A program made the position numbers and the translations under genes. DNA of 64,000 bases from the UHGV virus genome UHGV-0038498. One strand, written 5' to 3'. Under the pieces are notes generated by a model, which searched no databases, was not told where the DNA came from, and was given only the letters and a program-made list of their open reading frames with translations. How positions within the stretch are numbered: the first letter of the stretch is position 1; each line of letters begins with the position of its first letter. Positions 3,013 through 64,000 of the stretch are shown here, in pieces. Source of the DNA: a virus.

Positions 3013-3321
3013 ATGAAATTGACGACTGAACAAAAAGTAGCAATTCGTGAAATTTTGAAAACTAAATTGTCCATGGGTATTTCAAACGTAGTTTTTGAAA
3101 AGTCTGATGGTACTATTCGTACTATGAAAGGTACTCGTGATGCAGACTTTATGCCAACCATGCAAACCGGTAAATTGACTGAATCTGCTCGGAAAGAATC
3201 TACTGATATGATTCCAGTATTTGATGTTGAGCTTGGTGCATGGCGAGGTTTTTCTATTGACAAATTGATTTCCGTTAATGGTATGAAAGTTGAGCATTTG
3301 CTTCAATTTATTGGTAAATAA
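3013..3321 (+). CDS. hypothetical protein (102 aa)
   Basis: Small ORF between cd and gene 31. Confidence 0.5.
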   Translation: MKLTTEQKVAIREILKTKLSMGISNVVFEKSDGTIRTMKGTRDADFMPTMQTGKLTESARKESTDMIPVFDVELGAWRGFSIDKLISVNGMKVEHLLQFIGK

Positions 3322-3350
3322 ATGCTTTAAGAATTATTTGTTATTATTAA
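3321..3350 (+). promoter_or_regulatory. middle-type (MotA-box-like) promoter upstream of gene 31
   Basis: aaTGCTTTAa followed ~12 nt later by TATTAT; T4 middle promoters carry a TGCTT box near -30. Confidence 0.5.
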
Positions 3351-3378
3351 TTCATCTGTTAACAAAAAGGAAAAAACG

Positions 3379-3714
3379 ATGTCTGAAGTACAACAGCTAC
3401 CAATTCGTGCTGTCGGTGAATATGTTATTTTAGTTTCTGAACCTGCACAAGCCGGTGATGAAGAAGTTACAGAATCAGGACTTATTATCGGTAAACGTGT
3501 TCAAGGTGAAGTTCCTGAACTGTGTGTAATTCACTCTGTTGGTCCTGATGTTCCTGAAGGTTTCTGTGAAGTTGGTGATTTGACTTCTCTTCCAGTTGGT
3601 CAAATTCGAAACGTTCCGCATCCTTTTGTAGCTTTGGGTCTTAAGCAGCCAAAAGAAATTAAACAAAAATTCGTTACCTGTCACTATAAAGCTATTCCGT
3701 GTCTTTATAAGTGA
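3379..3714 (+). CDS. 31: co-chaperonin for capsid folding (GroES analogue)
   Basis: 111 aa, sequence [22 protein letters not shown]... matches remembered T4 gp31; position between cd and rIII. Confidence 0.85.
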
Positions 3715-4934: not shown

Positions 4935-5300
4935 ATGAACTACATCAACTTTGAACGTAAATATGTTTCTAATGGTATTGCAGGTTCTATTGATACTATC
5001 TGCCTTTGGAAACATCAAAATGGATCAGTATGCGAAATTGAACAGTATATGACTCCTAACTACGTTTATATGCGATTTGAAAATGGCATCACGGTTTCAA
5101 TCACAATGGAAGGTTCCAACTTCAAAATTGCTTTGGATGATGATTTTCGTCAACGCGATTTAGGGACTCATCCTTGCTGGAATGGCGTTAATCGCAAGCT
5201 TCTGGTTAAAACTTGGATTCGTCATATTCTGAGTAACAGAGCTAAACCTGAGCATCTTGAAGCAATCTTTGATGTAGTTCTTAACGAATTTGATATTTAA
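4935..5300 (+). CDS. hypothetical early protein (121 aa)
   Basis: GGAG RBS; own early-type promoter upstream. Confidence 0.55.
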   Translation: MNYINFERKYVSNGIAGSIDTICLWKHQNGSVCEIEQYMTPNYVYMRFENGITVSITMEGSNFKIALDDDFRQRDLGTHPCWNGVNRKLLVKTWIRHILSNRAKPEHLEAIFDVVLNEFDI

Positions 5301-5341
5301 AATAAAATGAGGGGCTTCGGCCCCTTACTGAGGAAAATACT

Positions 5342-60940: not shown

Positions 60941-61228
60941 ATGAAAACTTTCAAAGAGTTTACTTCTACAACTACCCCGGTTTCTACCATTACCGAAGCT
61001 ACTCTTACTTCTGAAGTTATTAAAGCAAATAAAGGACGAGAAGGTAAACCCATGATTAGCTTGGTTGATGGCGAAGAAATCAAAGGTACTGTTTACCTAG
61101 GTGATGGGTGGTCTGCTAAAAAGGATGGTGCTACAATCATTATCTCTCCTGCTGAAGAAACTGCGTTGTTTAAAGCTAAACACATTTCTGCGGCACATCT
61201 CAAGATTATTGCTAAAAATCTTTTGTAA
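60941..61228 (+). CDS. ipI: internal protein I (capsid-packaged anti-restriction protein)
   Basis: 95 aa; MKTFKEFTSTTTPVSTITE... matches remembered T4 IpI precursor; early promoter upstream. Confidence 0.8.
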   Translation: MKTFKEFTSTTTPVSTITEATLTSEVIKANKGREGKPMISLVDGEEIKGTVYLGDGWSAKKDGATIIISPAEETALFKAKHISAAHLKIIAKNLL

Positions 61229-61246
61229 TAAATATTTCACAAAGTT

Positions 61247-61284
61247 GTTTACATAGGGTTTTAGTTGTGATACTATTACCCTAT
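61247..61284 (+). promoter_or_regulatory. early promoter with inverted repeat around -10
   Basis: GTTTAC 61247-61252, TACTAT 61271-61276; arms ATAGGGT 61253-61259 / ACCCTAT 61278-61284. Confidence 0.6.
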
Positions 61285-61304
61285 CAACTACCGAGGAGAA
61301 TAAA

Positions 61305-61490
61305 ATGAAACGTTGTGAATTAATTCGAAATGTTGCTATTGCAATTTCTGCTTCCGCTTTTAGTTTTTCAATGTTTGTTGGATTTATATGCGGATTATTG
61401 ACTACAGCAGAAAATGTTTTTTCACTTGTAGTAGCATTTTTAATTGGTTTAATTGCTATCGTTATGGATAAAATTTCTAAAGGTGAATAG
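61305..61490 (+). CDS. small hydrophobic membrane protein (61 aa)
   Basis: GAGGAGAA RBS; two predicted hydrophobic helices; early promoter upstream. Confidence 0.45.
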   Translation: MKRCELIRNVAIAISASAFSFSMFVGFICGLLTTAENVFSLVVAFLIGLIAIVMDKISKGE

Positions 61491-61491
61491 A

Positions 61492-61902
61492 ATGAGTGTG
61501 AGTATTAACGAATACTATGTTTATGCTGGGGATTATGCAAATCCTTCTCATTTTGAAGGTAATTTAATACCTGATAAAGTTTTTAATACTCCTTTTGAAG
61601 CGTGGAGTTGGATTGAAAGTAAAAATGGATTTTCTTATCGTTATGTTGAAGTAACTGATTGGAGAGGAACTAAATATCCTAAAGAGCATTATTATGTAGA
61701 CCCATCTAAAGTAAATTTTCTTTTGTTCGCAGGCGATAATTACTATCCTTGTGGTGGATATGATGATTTGATTGCGTATGCTGAAACAGAAGATGAATTA
61801 CGCCAAATTATTGAAGACAATAAATCAAAACGATTTGGCGATAGTTTCGATTGGTGGCAAATCGTAAATGCCCATACACATACTATTGTTGATAAAGGTT
61901 AA
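61492..61902 (+). CDS. hypothetical protein (136 aa)
   Basis: ATG at 61492 right after preceding stop with AAAGGTGA RBS; ORF-track 61453 start is an extension. Confidence 0.45.
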   Translation: MSVSINEYYVYAGDYANPSHFEGNLIPDKVFNTPFEAWSWIESKNGFSYRYVEVTDWRGTKYPKEHYYVDPSKVNFLLFAGDNYYPCGGYDDLIAYAETEDELRQIIEDNKSKRFGDSFDWWQIVNAHTHTIVDKG

Positions 61903-61904
61903 TA

Positions 61905-62192
61905 ATGATTCTTTATGCGAAAGTATCATCCATTGAAAATGGATATAAATATGATCAAGAAGCAGCTAAAGCCTTGATTGATGATTATGGCATTTTAACA
62001 TGTTTTGAAGTTGAAAAGGTTTACATTGACCGTTCATCTTCTCAAGTTAAATTAGTAAAGGAAGACCGTAAATTTAATACAGTAAATTTTGATTTCTTTA
62101 TTGAAACAGAAAAAGGTCCTCTTGAATATGATATTTTCAAGAATCCTTTGGGTCTTGAATGCATCGTAAATATGTATTATCATAAATGGTAA
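61905..62192 (+). CDS. hypothetical protein (95 aa)
   Basis: Tightly coupled same-strand ORF. Confidence 0.45.
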   Translation: MILYAKVSSIENGYKYDQEAAKALIDDYGILTCFEVEKVYIDRSSSQVKLVKEDRKFNTVNFDFFIETEKGPLEYDIFKNPLGLECIVNMYYHKW

Positions 62193-62193
62193 A

Positions 62194-62223
62194 TATGCTT
62201 TAAGAATTATTTGTTATTATTAA
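62194..62223 (+). promoter_or_regulatory. middle-type (MotA-box-like) promoter upstream of HNH endonuclease gene
   Basis: Same 28-bp block TGCTTTAAGAATTATTTGTTATTATTAA as at 3323-3350. Confidence 0.45.
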
Positions 62224-62278
62224 CTCATACCGCACTGATTAATACCCTCTATCATCAAGGGTTCTTGCTTAAGAGCCT

Positions 62279-62911
62279 TTGTTAATAATTGGGAATTATA
62301 TTATGGATACTAAATTAGCTGAAATTTTTGAAGGAAAACATCCAAATTTTAGTACAGGAAAGCTGAAAGACAAAATAATAAAAGAAAATATTTTTCCATA
62401 CGAGTGTGCAATTTGTAAAATTTCAAAATGGCAAAATAAGCATATTGTTCTGCAATTAGACCATATTGATGGAAATAACAAAAATCATCTTAAATCAAAT
62501 TTAAGATTATTATGTCCAAATTGCCATTCGCAAACTGATACTTTTGCTGGTAAAAATATTAAAAATAATAAAAAGCGTTATAATGTTAGTGATGAAGAAA
62601 TTTTAAACGCACTATTAAATTCGGCTACTATATCATCTGCAATTACTTCATTAGGTTTAAGTAAAGGCGGAAACTATAAAAGATTCATTAAAATTGCTAA
62701 TGATAATAAATTATATCATTTACTGGTAAATATTAATGAAAAGATTTTAACTGATGAAATTTATGAAGAATTAGTTAAAATCGATTATTCTAAATTTGGA
62801 TGGGTTAGTAAAGCTGCTAAAATAATAGGTATAAGCCCACAAAAAGCTAGAAAATGGATAGAACGAAAGTGTCCAGAATTGATAGAACAATCTTTTTCAC
62901 GTAATAAATAA
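62279..62911 (+). CDS. HNH homing-type endonuclease
   Basis: 210 aa; HNH motif LQLDHIDGNNKNH...LLCPNCH plus paired Cys (CAICK); immediately 5' of tRNA cluster. Confidence 0.7.
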   Translation: MLIIGNYIMDTKLAEIFEGKHPNFSTGKLKDKIIKENIFPYECAICKISKWQNKHIVLQLDHIDGNNKNHLKSNLRLLCPNCHSQTDTFAGKNIKNNKKRYNVSDEEILNALLNSATISSAITSLGLSKGGNYKRFIKIANDNKLYHLLVNINEKILTDEIYEELVKIDYSKFGWVSKAAKIIGISPQKARKWIERKCPELIEQSFSRNK

Positions 62912-62917
62912 TATAGC

Positions 62918-63004
62918 GCGAGAATGGTCAAATTGGTAAAGGCACAGCACTTAAAATGCTGCGGAATGATTTCCTTGTGGGTTCGAGTCCCACTTCTCGC
63001 ACCA
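62918..63004 (+). tRNA. tRNA-Leu (anticodon UAA)
   Basis: Cloverleaf by eye: acceptor GCGAGAA/TTCTCGC, anticodon loop cTTAAAa, long variable arm, 3' ACCA. Confidence 0.85.
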
Positions 63005-63009
63005 AATTT

Positions 63010-63083
<74 letters not shown>

Positions 63084-63093
63084 ATTTAATTTA

Positions 63094-63167
63094 CTCCGTG
63101 TAGCTCAGTTTGGTAGAGCGCCTGATTTGGGATCAGGAGGTCCAAGGTTCAAATCCTTGTATGGAGA
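63094..63167 (+). tRNA. tRNA-Pro (anticodon UGG), no encoded CCA
   Basis: Acceptor CTCCGTG/TATGGAG (with G-U pairs), anticodon loop tTTGGGa, T-loop GTTCAAATC. Confidence 0.75.
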
Positions 63168-63169
63168 CT

Positions 63170-63259
63170 GGAGGCGTGGCAGAGTGGTTTAATGCACCGG
63201 TCTTGAAAACCGGCAGTCGCTCCGGCGACTCATAGGTTCAAATCCTATCGCCTCCGCCA
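63170..63259 (+). tRNA. tRNA-Ser (anticodon UGA)
   Basis: Acceptor GGAGGCG/CGCCTCC, anticodon loop cTTGAAaa, long variable arm, 3' GCCA. Confidence 0.85.
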
Positions 63260-63264
63260 GTTTT

Positions 63265-63340
63265 GCTGATTTAGCTCAGTAGGTGGAGCAACTCACTTGT
63301 AATGAGAAGGTCGGCGGTTCGATTCCGTCAATCAGCACCA
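63265..63340 (+). tRNA. tRNA-Thr (anticodon UGU)
   Basis: Acceptor GCTGATT/AATCAGC, anticodon loop cTTGTAa, T-loop GTTCGATTC, 3' ACCA. Confidence 0.8.
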
Positions 63341-63341
63341 A

Positions 63342-63416
63342 GGCCCTGTAGCTGGAAGGTTCAAGCAAGCGACTCATAATCGCCAGATGGTGGTTCAATT
63401 CCACCCAGGGCCACCA
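63342..63416 (+). tRNA. tRNA with CAU anticodon (Ile via lysidine, or Met)
   Basis: Acceptor GGCCCTG/CAGGGCC, anticodon loop cTCATAa, T-loop GTTCAATTC, 3' ACCA. Confidence 0.75.
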
Positions 63417-63429
63417 AATTAAGAATTAA

Positions 63430-63516
63430 GGGGAGTTATCCCGTAGAGGTAGCGGTGTGGACTGTAAATCCATTGTCATTGCGACTCGGGTGGTTCGACT
63501 CCATCACTCCCCACCA
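63430..63516 (+). tRNA. tRNA-Tyr-like (anticodon GUA), class II with long variable arm
   Basis: Acceptor GGGGAGT/ACTCCCC, anticodon loop cTGTAAa, T-loop GTTCGACTC, 3' ACCA; D-arm irregular. Confidence 0.6.
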
Positions 63517-63520
63517 ATTT

Positions 63521-63595
63521 GGATGTGTAGCTCAATGGCAGAGCGATCGCCTGTTAAGCGATTGGTTATAGGTTCGAATCCTATCACGTCCGCCA
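63521..63595 (+). tRNA. tRNA-Asn (anticodon GUU)
   Basis: Acceptor GGATGTG/CACGTCC, anticodon stem ATCGC/GCGAT with loop cTGTTAa, T-loop GTTCGAATC, 3' GCCA. Confidence 0.7.
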
Positions 63596-63709
63596 AATTT
63601 GTGACAACTGTCACATTAATATCTACTTGACGCGATTATAGGGGTTGAACTGATCACTCTTCTCTTAATTTCGTGTGAAGACATCTTGATTGTTGGAGTA
63701 GGTATTAAT

Positions 63710-63785
63710 GTGGCCGTAGTTCAGTTGGTAGAACTCGAGATTGTGATTCTCGTAGTCATGGGTTCGACTCCCATCGGTCACCCCA
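63710..63785 (+). tRNA. tRNA-His (anticodon GUG)
   Basis: Acceptor GTGGCCG/CGGTCAC, anticodon stem CGAGA/TCTCG with loop tTGTGAt, T-loop GTTCGACTC, 3' CCCA. Confidence 0.65.
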
Positions 63786-63789
63786 ATTA

Positions 63790-63865
63790 CGGGGCATAGC
63801 TCAGAAGGAAGAGCAAGGACCTTCTAAGTCCTAGGTCGTAGGTTCGATCCCTACTGCCTCGACCA
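63790..63865 (+). tRNA. tRNA-Arg (anticodon UCU)
   Basis: Acceptor CGGGGCA/TGCCTCG (C1-G72), anticodon stem AGGAC/GTCCT with loop cTTCTAa, T-loop GTTCGATCC, 3' ACCA. Confidence 0.75.
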
Positions 63866-63882
63866 ATTAAGTGAGGAAAATA

Positions 63883-64000
63883 TGAAAGGTAATGTTTATT
63901 TAGTAGTTCATGATTTGACATTCTATTTTAATCACAATGACACTGTTATTTCTGAACGTGTAATTAATTTGCTTTATCAACACGCGGATTATGTTTATGT
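63883..64000 (+). CDS. hypothetical protein, 5' part (3' end outside window)
   Basis: ATG with GAGGAAAA RBS after tRNA-Arg; open to window end. Confidence 0.35.

Follow-up and report, generated by a model that had tools for sequence, protein, structure and literature searches.

Why does the tRNA cluster of a T4-like phage begin with tRNA-Leu, and how did an HNH endonuclease gene come to lie immediately in front of it? The question arises from a 64,000-nt stretch of DNA, referred to here as the window, which is part of a Tequatrovirus (T4-like) genome. A sequence-only reading had noticed that a free-standing HNH endonuclease gene ends just before tRNA-Leu, whereas the T4 cluster begins with tRNA-Gln followed by tRNA-Leu. 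It had suggested that tRNA-Gln could have been lost through an insertion or replacement, associated with the endonuclease, at the cluster's 5' edge. Here we examine the structure of this locus, the HNH protein, and the distribution of the gene among related phages.

The 5' edge of the tRNA cluster

ARAGORN identified ten tRNA genes in the window, all located between positions 62918 and 63865, and none of them is tRNA-Gln (Table 1). A permissive Rfam scan of positions 61800 to 64000 detected no additional tRNA or tRNA remnant. The gene order given for T4 agrees with the T4 record, which reads trna.2, tRNA-Gln, Leu, Gly, Pro, Ser, Thr, Ile, segB, Arg, rnaD, and rnaC. Phage KK4 harbors the identical ten tRNAs together with an intact tRNA-Gln and has no HNH gene, and in slur13 the cluster order is as in the window, with tRNA-Gln in front and, again, no HNH gene. 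The gap between the HNH stop codon and tRNA-Leu is exactly 6 nt (TATAGC), the distance given in the sequence-only reading. A tRNA-Gln located elsewhere would have spoken against a replacement, but the window contains none, and the tRNA tags gt001 to gt010 of two complete RefSeq genomes that harbor the cassette (HNH+) are all in this cluster, with no Gln among them.

Table 1. Positions of the features at the HNH locus and domains of the HNH protein
Feature	Position	Strand	Basis or remark
T4 middle-promoter-like element (MotA-box-like TGCTTTA, 12 nt, TATTAT)	62196..62220	+	Pattern match
11-bp hairpin (CAAGGGUUCUU / GCUU loop / AAGAGCCUUUG)	62256..62281	+	MFE and centroid folds
tRNA-Gln 5' stub TGGGAATTA, nt 1-9 of 73	62290..62298	+	Alignment
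HNH cassette, 616 bp, only in HNH+ phages	62299..62914	+	Alignments; replaces tRNA-Gln nt 10-71 (62 bp)
HNH endonuclease ORF	62303..62911	+	202 aa and stop; stop codon 62909-62911
AG and 1-nt spacer C before tRNA-Leu	62915..62917	+	Alignment with T4 and others
tRNA-Leu(UAA)	62918..63004	+	ARAGORN; Rfam tRNA, 59.3 bits; now first tRNA of the cluster
Gly, Pro, Ser, Thr, Met(CAT), Tyr, Asn, 114-nt spacer, His, and Arg tRNAs	63010..63865	+	ARAGORN, Rfam
Zn-binding HNH nuclease domain	Residues ~30-85 of the HNH protein		
Two helical, helix-turn-helix-like modules	Residues ~95-200 of the HNH protein		

Alignment with T4, KK4, and slur13 indicates that an HNH cassette replaced most of tRNA-Gln where the T-even tRNA cluster begins, as had been suspected. 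The cassette takes the place of 62 of the 73 nt of the tRNA-Gln gene, with junctions at 62298/62299 and 62914/62915. The window and T4 are identical up to TGGGAATTA, the 9 nt with which tRNA-Gln opens in T4, KK4, slur13, RB51, and fPS-2, and identity resumes at AG-C-GCGAGAATGG, comprising the end of tRNA-Gln, the spacer, and tRNA-Leu. The AG at this junction is possibly the last 2 nt of tRNA-Gln, a match too short for certainty, and the spacer nucleotide that follows is A in teqhad and slur03. When six HNH+ phages were compared with six phages that do not harbor the cassette (HNH-), the locus was 616 nt in the former and 62 nt in the latter, the junctions were identical, and no HNH-linked difference was seen in the sequence of tRNA-Leu.

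The HNH protein and the sequence upstream of its gene

The ORF had been given as positions 62279 to 62911. Its end stands, but its start does not: 62279 is a TTG assigned mechanically in the ORF listing, which results in 210 aa. The biological start is almost certainly the ATG at 62303, giving 202 aa, because the RefSeq homologs are 609-nt CDSs, the protein is aligned over residues 1 to 202 of 202 with PHROG 14736 (E = 5e-124), and the alignments with divergent homologs begin at the Met of this ATG. The public annotation "HNH endonuclease" is already attached to the gene in dozens of genomes.

The protein contains the HNH motif recognized by the sequence-only reading (D53-H54-IDGN...N66...C71-PNC74-H75), along with C35-xx-C38, and the motif residues, including the zinc cysteines C35, C38, C71, and C74, are invariant among 24 homologs. 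The beta-beta-alpha-metal core of a His-Me finger is present, with the catalytic His (DH), the structural Asn, and the metal-binding His/Asn. The Pfam HNH score of the protein itself is 17.3 bits (E = 0.0053; gathering cut-off, 21.4), precomputed PF01844 matches are present on close homologs, and nine PHROG families labeled HNH match the protein with E values from 5e-124 to 4e-4. A sequence search of the PDB returned no homolog (best E, 0.39), and Foldseek gave no significant whole-chain match. As 5,510 homologs are found at E<=1e-5, the ORF is not a product of chance. Compared with homologs at 58 to 68% identity, pN is 0.14 to 0.28 and pS is 0.59 to 0.74, with a nominal dN/dS of 0.10 to 0.25. 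These values indicate purifying selection on the protein, which has kept all of its catalytic and zinc-binding residues. The invariance of these residues, together with a pN well below pS over the full length, argues that a working HNH protein is maintained.

Upstream of the tRNA transcription unit, and ~80 nt before the HNH start codon, is an element that, judging from the published consensus, we take to be a candidate T4 middle promoter with a MotA box. The pattern occurs twice in the window versus 0.04 times expected; the second copy (3323 to 3347) is located just upstream of an ORF at 3379, and the two copies share a block of ~35 nt with one mismatch. The element is identical in T4 and teqhad, and TGCTTTA-N12-TATTAT is also found in a divergent contig (L014). 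A generic sigma-70 and terminator scan was uninformative (19 sites versus 12.9 expected, and no terminator). Downstream of the promoter-like element and ahead of the tRNA-Gln stub, a conserved 11-bp hairpin is predicted, and its variable positions among 12 phages are found only in the loop or in the A-U/G-U closing pair. The 138-nt leader as a whole folds with no exceptional stability (z = -0.58), and we therefore do not claim sequestration of the ribosome-binding site. The only purine-rich, weakly Shine-Dalgarno-like motif before the HNH ATG is GGGA, 8 nt upstream in the region of the tRNA-Gln stub, and expression of the HNH gene may therefore be low.

Distribution among phages and the origin of the replacement

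Our phage collection contains 64 records with the cassette and both junctions, and the junctions are identical; tblastn with the HNH protein also retrieves 64 records at >=95% identity. A further 448 records retain tRNA-Gln. A tRNA-Gln probe matches 513 records, which fits 448 full matches, 64 partial matches (HNH+), and 1 divergent match. The counts fit with a mutually exclusive presence of the HNH cassette and tRNA-Gln. The cassette occurs in ~12% of records, with ~88% of close relatives devoid of it and no sign of a sweep. Rather than an invariant HNH position accompanied by uniform tRNA content, which the sequence-only reading had named as the contrary outcome, the locus is a presence/absence polymorphism with identical junctions across many Tequatrovirus phages.

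Among six HNH+ phages with differing flanks, the identity of the cassette is 98.4 to 100%. Their flanks represent different haplogroups, between which identity is only 66% on the left and 78 to 85% on the right. Each HNH+ locus has an HNH- counterpart with a similar flank on at least one side, reaching ~99% in the best pairs: the window and KK4 (98.8% left, 99.7% right), slur03 and slur13 (99.0% left, 99.1% right), HY03 and fPS-2 (96.1% left, 98.6% right), OE5505 and T2 (97.1% right), and teqhad and T2 (only 90.7% left), the HNH+ phage being named first. The cassette varies less than its flanks, shows no coupling to them, and is found in several backgrounds. Homologs with 68% and 58% identity occupy the syntenic position in divergent T4-like contigs, after genes 1-57A-57B and homologs of trna.4/.3/.2, suggesting that the association of the HNH gene with the locus is old. 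In one divergent T4-like contig, the HNH homolog starts 14 nt after an intact tRNA-Gln.

We consider the cassette most likely to be an HNH (His-Me finger) homing-endonuclease gene of the free-standing type that has settled on top of tRNA-Gln. The ORF is located outside any intron or intein, between trna.2 and tRNA-Leu. Transcription from the middle-promoter-like element would place the gene at the start of the tRNA precursor, as its first cistron, and RNase P cleavage at the 5' end of tRNA-Leu would trim the HNH mRNA 6 nt past the stop codon. The protein, for which nuclease activity is predicted from homology, would bind DNA via its two C-terminal helix-turn-helix modules and nick or cut the HNH-less allele of a co-infecting relative. 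The likeliest target would be the tRNA-Gln gene or the tRNA-Gln/tRNA-Leu boundary, because nothing within ~+-2.5 kb other than tRNA-Gln nt 10 to 71 and the junctions distinguishes the two alleles. In T4, the cleavage sites of free-standing endonucleases are often hundreds to thousands of base pairs away from the endonuclease genes (PMC2988022), and the target may therefore lie outside the compared region. Recombination-dependent repair of the T4 type would then copy the cassette from the HNH+ genome, converting the tRNA-Gln allele to the HNH allele at the cost of one dispensable tRNA. The nuclease itself may have driven the replacement.

When six HNH+ and six HNH- phages were compared, a small sample in which the tRNA flank is almost invariant, no HNH-linked columns or co-conversion tract were found outside the cassette, even with a relaxed threshold of 5/6 versus 1/6. 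The observed pattern could therefore also come from the ordinary recombination that T-even phages frequently undergo. This raises the possibility that the cassette is a passive passenger, which entered once by illegitimate recombination and was then shuffled by the ordinary homologous recombination of T-even phages, and whose nuclease does not drive inheritance and is perhaps inactive on phage DNA or barely expressed. The single junction pair in all HNH+ records fits a single origin, and the frequency of the cassette and the weak translation initiation region of the ORF also point in this direction. We nevertheless regard this explanation as unlikely. The invariant catalytic and zinc-binding residues and the low pN relative to pS argue against it, as does the description of the nearest characterized relative, F-TflIV, as a site-specific endonuclease (Akulenko 2004, as cited in PMC2330249 and PMC5714182). 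In addition, the strong tie of relatives to tRNA genes, which spans lineages, is hard to explain without target-directed mobility. Slightly less likely still is that the gene persists mainly through a benefit to the phage and not through selfish homing, with a domesticated nuclease that excludes the tRNA region of rivals or breaks DNA in such a way that the tRNA array is amplified as a countermeasure to tRNA-targeting defenses. SegB, encoded in the same cluster, mediates both marker exclusion (PMC2330249) and the amplification of tRNA and anti-defense loci (PMC13096335), and an HNH gene conserved in position and under purifying selection in divergent T4-like phages would agree with such a role. 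However, the great majority of close relatives do without the gene, its presence costs a tRNA gene, and there is no amplified tRNA array in the window. A benefit of this kind is compatible with homing.

It is also conceivable, but highly improbable, that a group I intron with an ORF invaded tRNA-Gln and that the flanking tRNA halves subsequently decayed. HNH endonucleases are frequently intron-encoded, and the ORF does sit within a former tRNA gene. What is left of the tRNA, however, is just 9 + 2 nt and not two exon halves, the cassette is nearly all ORF (609 of 616 nt), and the permissive Rfam scan of positions 61800 to 64000 finds no intron or ribozyme.

Relatives at tRNA genes and comparison with known endonucleases

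The homing explanation can be extended, tentatively, to relatives of the gene in other phages. In IMG/VR, a tRNA is located no more than 1 kb away from 68 of 80 relatives, and 23 of 72 unique ORFs end <=30 nt from, or overlap, a tRNA on the same strand. The tRNAs adjoining these 23 ORFs include 13 tRNA-Leu and 4 tRNA-Tyr, versus a class II background of 24% (p ~6e-7), and the bias persists over 12 protein clusters. The HNH gene of Erwinia phage Cronus is followed after 3 nt by tRNA-Tyr, an HNH-like ORF of Enterobacter phage EnA02 is followed after 1 nt by tRNA-Ser, and the window, with tRNA-Leu, also fits the pattern. The gene may thus possibly belong to a widespread clade of phage HNH homing endonucleases specialized for tRNA clusters, homing to the 5' edge of class II tRNA genes (those with a long variable arm: Leu, Tyr, and Ser). 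Its members would recognize the conserved 5' part of the tRNA and the sequence upstream, with each invasion displacing or erasing the upstream neighbor, here tRNA-Gln. The bias may also derive from shared ancestry of the loci, from the architecture of tRNA clusters, or from selection acting on how the transcript is processed, and not from recognition of a target. In contig L014, the HNH stop codon is followed by a fragment resembling the 5' part of tRNA-Leu. An intron-split tRNA-Leu was considered and rejected, as neither Rfam nor ARAGORN, run with introns permitted, detected one.

The closest characterized relative is F-TflIV (hegA) of coliphage T5, with 35% identity over 170 aa (E = 2e-22); tblastn gave 34.7% identity across 84% of the query. 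F-TflIV, which has been placed in His-Me finger group 1 (PF01844) (PMC5714182), shares the domain order, with an N-terminal CxxC...DH...N...CxxCH nuclease and a C-terminal helix-turn-helix. Its gene, too, is embedded in a tRNA cluster, that of T5, where it follows tRNA-Ile2 at a distance of 23 nt. In contrast to the HNH protein, it is devoid of ~23 residues of the middle helical module. It also comes from another phage family, has another neighboring tRNA, and has no reported replacement of a tRNA gene.

SegB of T4 resembles the HNH gene in being a free-standing endonuclease in the same tRNA cluster that is missing from many relatives, and its gene ends 5 nt before the next tRNA. Experiments have demonstrated that SegB homes within the T4 tRNA cluster and that the rival's tRNA region is excluded (PMC2330249). 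SegB differs in being a GIY-YIG enzyme, from a catalytic family unrelated to HNH. Kinship was rejected, as the HNH protein could not be aligned significantly with SegB of T4 (best E, 2.8), and no GIY-YIG family was found among its Pfam/PHROG matches. segB is absent from the window, and HY03 carries both segB and the HNH gene. In RB51, a segB-like gene replaces tRNA-Pro. Its product was considered as a paralog of the HNH protein owing to its identical length of 202 aa and rejected as a SegB-like GIY-YIG protein, which shares with the HNH protein only a 24-aa C-terminal helix-turn-helix stretch (50% identity, pairwise E = 2e-4).

MobA to MobE of T4 are members of the same superfamily group as the HNH protein (PMC5714182), combining an HNH domain with a distinct C-terminal DNA-binding region and occupying an intergenic slot of the T-even genome (PMC2988022). 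They are similar to the HNH gene in life-style, as free-standing HNH endonucleases, but are found at other loci and have overwritten no gene. In a tblastn search of >500 Tequatrovirus records (E<=1e-5), only the 64 cassette-bearing records matched and T4 did not; the mob genes are thus not detectably similar at this threshold, assuming that the mob content of the records is as in T4. HNH genes are associated with phage tRNA clusters, for example in mycobacteriophages, and a role in tRNA repertoire change has been proposed (PMC6409571). Those reports concern gene content, unlike the base-precise replacement described here. The exchange of tRNA-Gln for an HNH gene is a phenomenon of an already known kind. 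The papers we searched contained no description of this replacement, of a base-precise replacement of a single tRNA, or of a preference for the 5' edge of Leu, Tyr, and Ser tRNA genes.

The locus provides a clean natural case in which a selfish nuclease gene appears to have removed a phage tRNA gene with base-pair precision, and matched element-free relatives (KK4, slur13, T4, and T2) are at hand. Alongside SegB, it offers a system for studying homing, the exclusion of markers, and the turnover of tRNA repertoires in T-even phages. If the preference for the 5' edge of Leu, Tyr, and Ser tRNA genes is real, its recognition logic is testable, and if the clade we tentatively propose exists, it would be a general driver of tRNA gain and loss in phage repertoires. 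Phage tRNAs counter tRNA-targeting defenses (PMC13096335), and elements that delete or move single tRNAs could alter the range of hosts open to a therapeutic T4-like phage.

An HNH endonuclease gene in the place of tRNA-Gln

In a megablast search, 61200-64000 hit over 1,100 phage records, with Tequatrovirus (T4-like) coliphages at the top (96 to 98% identity); the window and the T4 record are in opposite orientation, plus strand against minus strand. The sequence-only reading placed tRNA-Gln ahead of tRNA-Leu in T4, and in the T4 record the genes do run trna.2, tRNA-Gln, Leu, Gly, Pro, Ser, Thr, Ile, segB, Arg, rnaD, rnaC. When the window was aligned with T4 and teqhad, the spacer between trna.2 and the tRNAs was identical as far as TGGGAATTA, which corresponds to nucleotides 1 to 9 of tRNA-Gln. 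Beyond this stub, T4 has 62 nt more of tRNA-Gln, and the window has a cassette of 616 nt, 609 of them an HNH ORF. Identity between the window and T4 restarts 3' of the cassette at AG-C-GCGAGAATGG, comprising the end of tRNA-Gln, a 1-nt spacer, and tRNA-Leu. KK4 and slur13 harbor an intact tRNA-Gln ahead of the same ten tRNAs as the window and lack the HNH gene. Of the two possibilities raised earlier, an endonuclease-linked insertion or a replacement at the 5' edge of the cluster, our results therefore demonstrate replacement: the HNH cassette has taken the place of the body of tRNA-Gln, rather than being inserted beside it.

The ORF had been read as 62279-62911. The ORF and its stop codon stand, but 62279 is a mechanical TTG. 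The real start is almost certainly the ATG at 62303 (202 aa), because RefSeq homologs (609-nt CDSs annotated "HNH endonuclease"), PHROG 14736 (end-to-end alignment, E 5e-124), and homologs of 58 to 68% identity, whose first residue aligns with the Met encoded at 62303, agree. The gap to tRNA-Leu(UAA) is exactly 6 nt, as had been noted. ARAGORN finds ten tRNAs in the window (Leu, Gly, Pro, Ser, Thr, Met-CAT, Tyr, Asn, His, and Arg), again without Gln, and a permissive Rfam scan of 61800-64000 adds nothing to these.

The HNH motif recognized by eye is present as C35-xx-C38, D53-H54, N66, and C71-xx-C74-H75, and none of these residues varies in an alignment of 24 homologs. The protein belongs to His-Me finger group 1, which also includes F-TflIV and MobA-E (PMC5714182). 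Its best-characterized relative is T5 F-TflIV (35% identity, 170 aa, E 2e-22), whose gene lies inside the T5 tRNA region, 23 nt 3' of tRNA-Ile2; T4 SegB is unrelated. The Pfam HNH profile scores 17.3 bits, just under its 21.4 threshold, Pfam helix-turn-helix families match residues 164-192 weakly, and 11 PHROG families pass the threshold, nine of them labeled HNH endonuclease and one endonuclease VII. In the AlphaFold model (pLDDT 87, pTM 0.44, consistent with flexible linkage of the domains), two helical modules come after a small beta-beta-alpha core. Against the homologs of 58 to 68% identity, pN is 0.14 to 0.28 and pS 0.59 to 0.74; the nominal dN/dS of 0.10 to 0.25 is reliable in direction alone, as dS is saturated. 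The protein is being maintained.

Features of the window at and around the HNH locus
Feature	Position	Strand	Remark
Homologs of T4 genes 1, 57A, 57B, ipI, trna.4, trna.3, and trna.2, then HNH ORF, then tRNA cluster	last 5 kb of window	+	
Block ATGCTTTAAGAATTATTTGTTATTATTAA[T/C]TCAT, two copies	3321-3355; 62194-62228		~35 nt, 59 kb apart, one mismatch
TGCTTTA-N12-TATTAT, putative MotA-type middle promoter	62196-62220		matches T4 MotA-dependent middle-promoter consensus
Hairpin, 11 bp	62256-62281		between promoter-like element and tRNA-Gln stub
tRNA-Gln stub	62290-62298		
HNH cassette	62299-62914		
HNH ORF, ATG start to stop	62303-62911	+	
tRNA cluster, from tRNA-Leu(UAA)	62918-63865		
tRNA, Met(CAT) by ARAGORN	63342-63416		
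tRNA-Asn/tRNA-His spacer	63596-63709		114 nt

Distribution and movement of the cassette

A probe of the cassette with both junctions had a complete match in 64 phage records (at least 98% identity among the matches listed); the other matches listed were to the two flanks only, 61 to 62 nt apart, with tRNA-Gln in between. An independent tblastn search with the protein likewise gave 64 records at least 95% identical, the next standing at ~35% full-length identity with none between. The T4 tRNA-Gln probe matched 448 records completely and 65 partially, and the latter fit the 64 cassette-bearing (HNH+) records plus one divergent phage. Because of these counts (64 versus 448, GenBank/RefSeq duplicates included), the cassette and tRNA-Gln look mutually exclusive, at ~12% versus 88% of records. 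In two complete HNH+ genomes, RefSeq tRNA tags gt001-gt010 all lie inside the cluster, Gln not among them. The locus is polymorphic and tRNA-Gln is found nowhere else in the window, the two points on which the sequence-only reading had made its interpretation depend.

We compared six HNH+ loci (window, slur03, teqhad, phiD1, HY03, and OE5505) with six HNH- loci (T4, KK4, slur13, T2, RB51, and fPS-2). The cassette is 616 nt in all six HNH+ loci, with the same junctions and 98.4 to 100% identity, and its flanks vary: teqhad and phiD1 have an additional 516-nt ORF upstream, shared with T2; HY03 has a T4-type tRNA cluster including segB; OE5505 has a T2-type ORF where tRNA-Thr would be; and the window and slur03 have the ten-tRNA cluster. 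Each HNH+ locus resembles an HNH- locus on one or both flanks (window/KK4, left 98.8%, right 99.7%; slur03/slur13, left 99.0%, right 99.1%; HY03/fPS-2, left 96.1%, right 98.6%; OE5505/T2, right 97.1%; teqhad/T2, left just 90.7%). When the entire loci were scanned column by column (6 versus 6), no position outside the cassette separated HNH+ from HNH-; the cassette has therefore passed from one background to another, and any co-converted flanks are very short or undetectable.

This flank pattern is what a homing element predicts, though ordinary recombination could produce it as well. Homing is probable. If the enzyme works as SegB (PMC2330249) and the mob/seg genes (PMC2988022) do, it would nick or cut the allele lacking HNH in a mixed infection, after which the cassette would be copied by recombinational repair. 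If it acts locally and is self-immune, the enzyme would have to recognize something overlapping tRNA-Gln nt 10-71, because these nucleotides and the junctions are the sole allele-specific sequence within the region compared. However, the cut of a free-standing endonuclease can lie far from its own gene (PMC2988022), and SegB in vitro cuts its own genome too (PMC2330249).

Association with tRNA genes and other variation in the cluster

The nearest nonidentical homologs, P0002 (68%) and P0003 and P0004 (both 58%), are from metagenomic contigs of divergent T4-like phages. Their genes are syntenic with that of the window, following gp2, gene 1 (DNMK), 57A, 57B (Acb1), and trna.4/.3/.2 homologs at the head of the tRNA region, and in one such contig, L014, the HNH gene begins 14 nt 3' of an intact tRNA-Gln. 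Because of this synteny and the retained tRNA-Gln, the tie of the HNH gene to the cluster head predates the Tequatrovirus replacement. In L014 (4604-5009), GCGAGACCAAGCTGGTAACGACC, resembling a tRNA-Leu 5' acceptor and D-arm, lies 3 nt past the HNH stop; no complete tRNA containing this fragment was found, and ~400 nt of noncoding sequence follows. Downstream, when introns are allowed, ARAGORN predicts a tRNA-Trp interrupted by an intron of 134 nt (5087-5316), and 5226-5291 matches part of T4 rnaC at 74% identity.

An IMG/VR scan with an alignment of the closest homologs gave 80 loci from very diverse phages, with a tRNA within 3 kb of the match in 73 and within 1 kb in 68. A same-strand tRNA overlaps the stop or starts at most 30 nt past it in 23 of 72 unique ORFs; 13 of these 23 tRNAs are Leu and 4 are Tyr, against a background in the same loci of 13% Leu and 24% class II (long-variable-arm) tRNAs (binomial p 1e-6 for Leu and 6e-7 for class II, with locus relatedness and tRNA-cluster architecture uncontrolled). 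The Leu-adjacent cases fall into eight separate protein clusters and one mixed Leu/Tyr cluster holding the window protein. Annotated genomes include Erwinia phage Cronus (tRNA-Leu, 2 nt, HNH, 3 nt, tRNA-Tyr) and Enterobacter phage EnA02 (tRNA-His, 19 nt, HNH-like ORF, 1 nt, tRNA-Ser). The arrangement in the window fits the class II pattern. This suggests that the landing site may be the conserved 5' part of class II tRNA genes, the loss of tRNA-Gln being collateral.

The cluster varies elsewhere. In RB51 (locus L010, 2897-3505), a SegB-like GIY-YIG endonuclease gene (202 aa) occupies the place of tRNA-Pro, with a degenerate tRNA-Pro 5' piece upstream, and ends 6 nt ahead of tRNA-Ser; it is a second endonuclease gene overwriting one tRNA in the same cluster. 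The C-terminal 24 aa of its product resemble the helix-turn-helix of the HNH protein (50% identity). An uncharacterized ORF in OE5505 (L007, 3626-4108) and T2 (L009, 3147-3548), at the position of the window's tRNA-Thr between tRNA-Ser and tRNA-Met(CAT), is a third indel altering tRNA content. The equivalent of the Met(CAT) tRNA is tRNA-Ile (CAU, T4-like) in the RB51 record, and the T2L gene is named tRNA-Met in the SegB paper (PMC2330249); the window sequence is substantially unlike T4 tRNA-Ile. The tRNA-Asn/tRNA-His spacer folds unusually well, at -33.1 kcal/mol (z -3.1, 0/200 shuffles as good), and teqhad, slur03, OE5505, and slur13 share it at 100% identity. No Rfam family matches the spacer, nor do T4 rnaC and rnaD. 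RB51, T2, and phiD1 lack both this spacer and tRNA-His. The spacer may be a small stable RNA. The window cluster lacks segB, which occurs together with the HNH cassette in the related HY03; T4 rnaD and rnaC were not found in the window and, being downstream of tRNA-Arg in relatives, are expected beyond its end.

Expression and significance

The 25-mer pattern TGCTTTA-N12-TATTAT occurs twice in the window versus 0.04 expected, and the element is kept in T4 and L014. The block containing it seems to be a MotA-type middle-promoter module used twice: one copy lies upstream of the tRNA/HNH unit and the other just upstream of a 111-aa ORF at 3379, which we take to be gene 31 (co-chaperonin). The HNH ORF would be the first cistron of a tRNA precursor transcribed from this middle-promoter-like element, and RNase P cleavage at tRNA-Leu would leave an mRNA ending 6 nt past the HNH stop. 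The T4 SegB gene ends 5 nt ahead of tRNA-Arg, and T4 free-standing endonuclease genes have middle or late promoters (PMC2988022). The hairpin stem is kept in 12/12 phages compared, and no part of the spacer varies more than the hairpin loop.

Known cases include endonuclease genes within T-even tRNA clusters (SegB) and HNH genes within the T5 tRNA region and the tRNA arrays of mycobacteriophages (PMC2330249, PMC2988022, PMC6409571), and public genomes already annotate the window gene as an HNH endonuclease. No paper on an HNH gene replacing tRNA-Gln was found in the literature searched. The initial observation is confirmed and its interpretation supported, and the replacement of tRNA-Gln by the HNH gene is a new, well-documented case of a known phenomenon.
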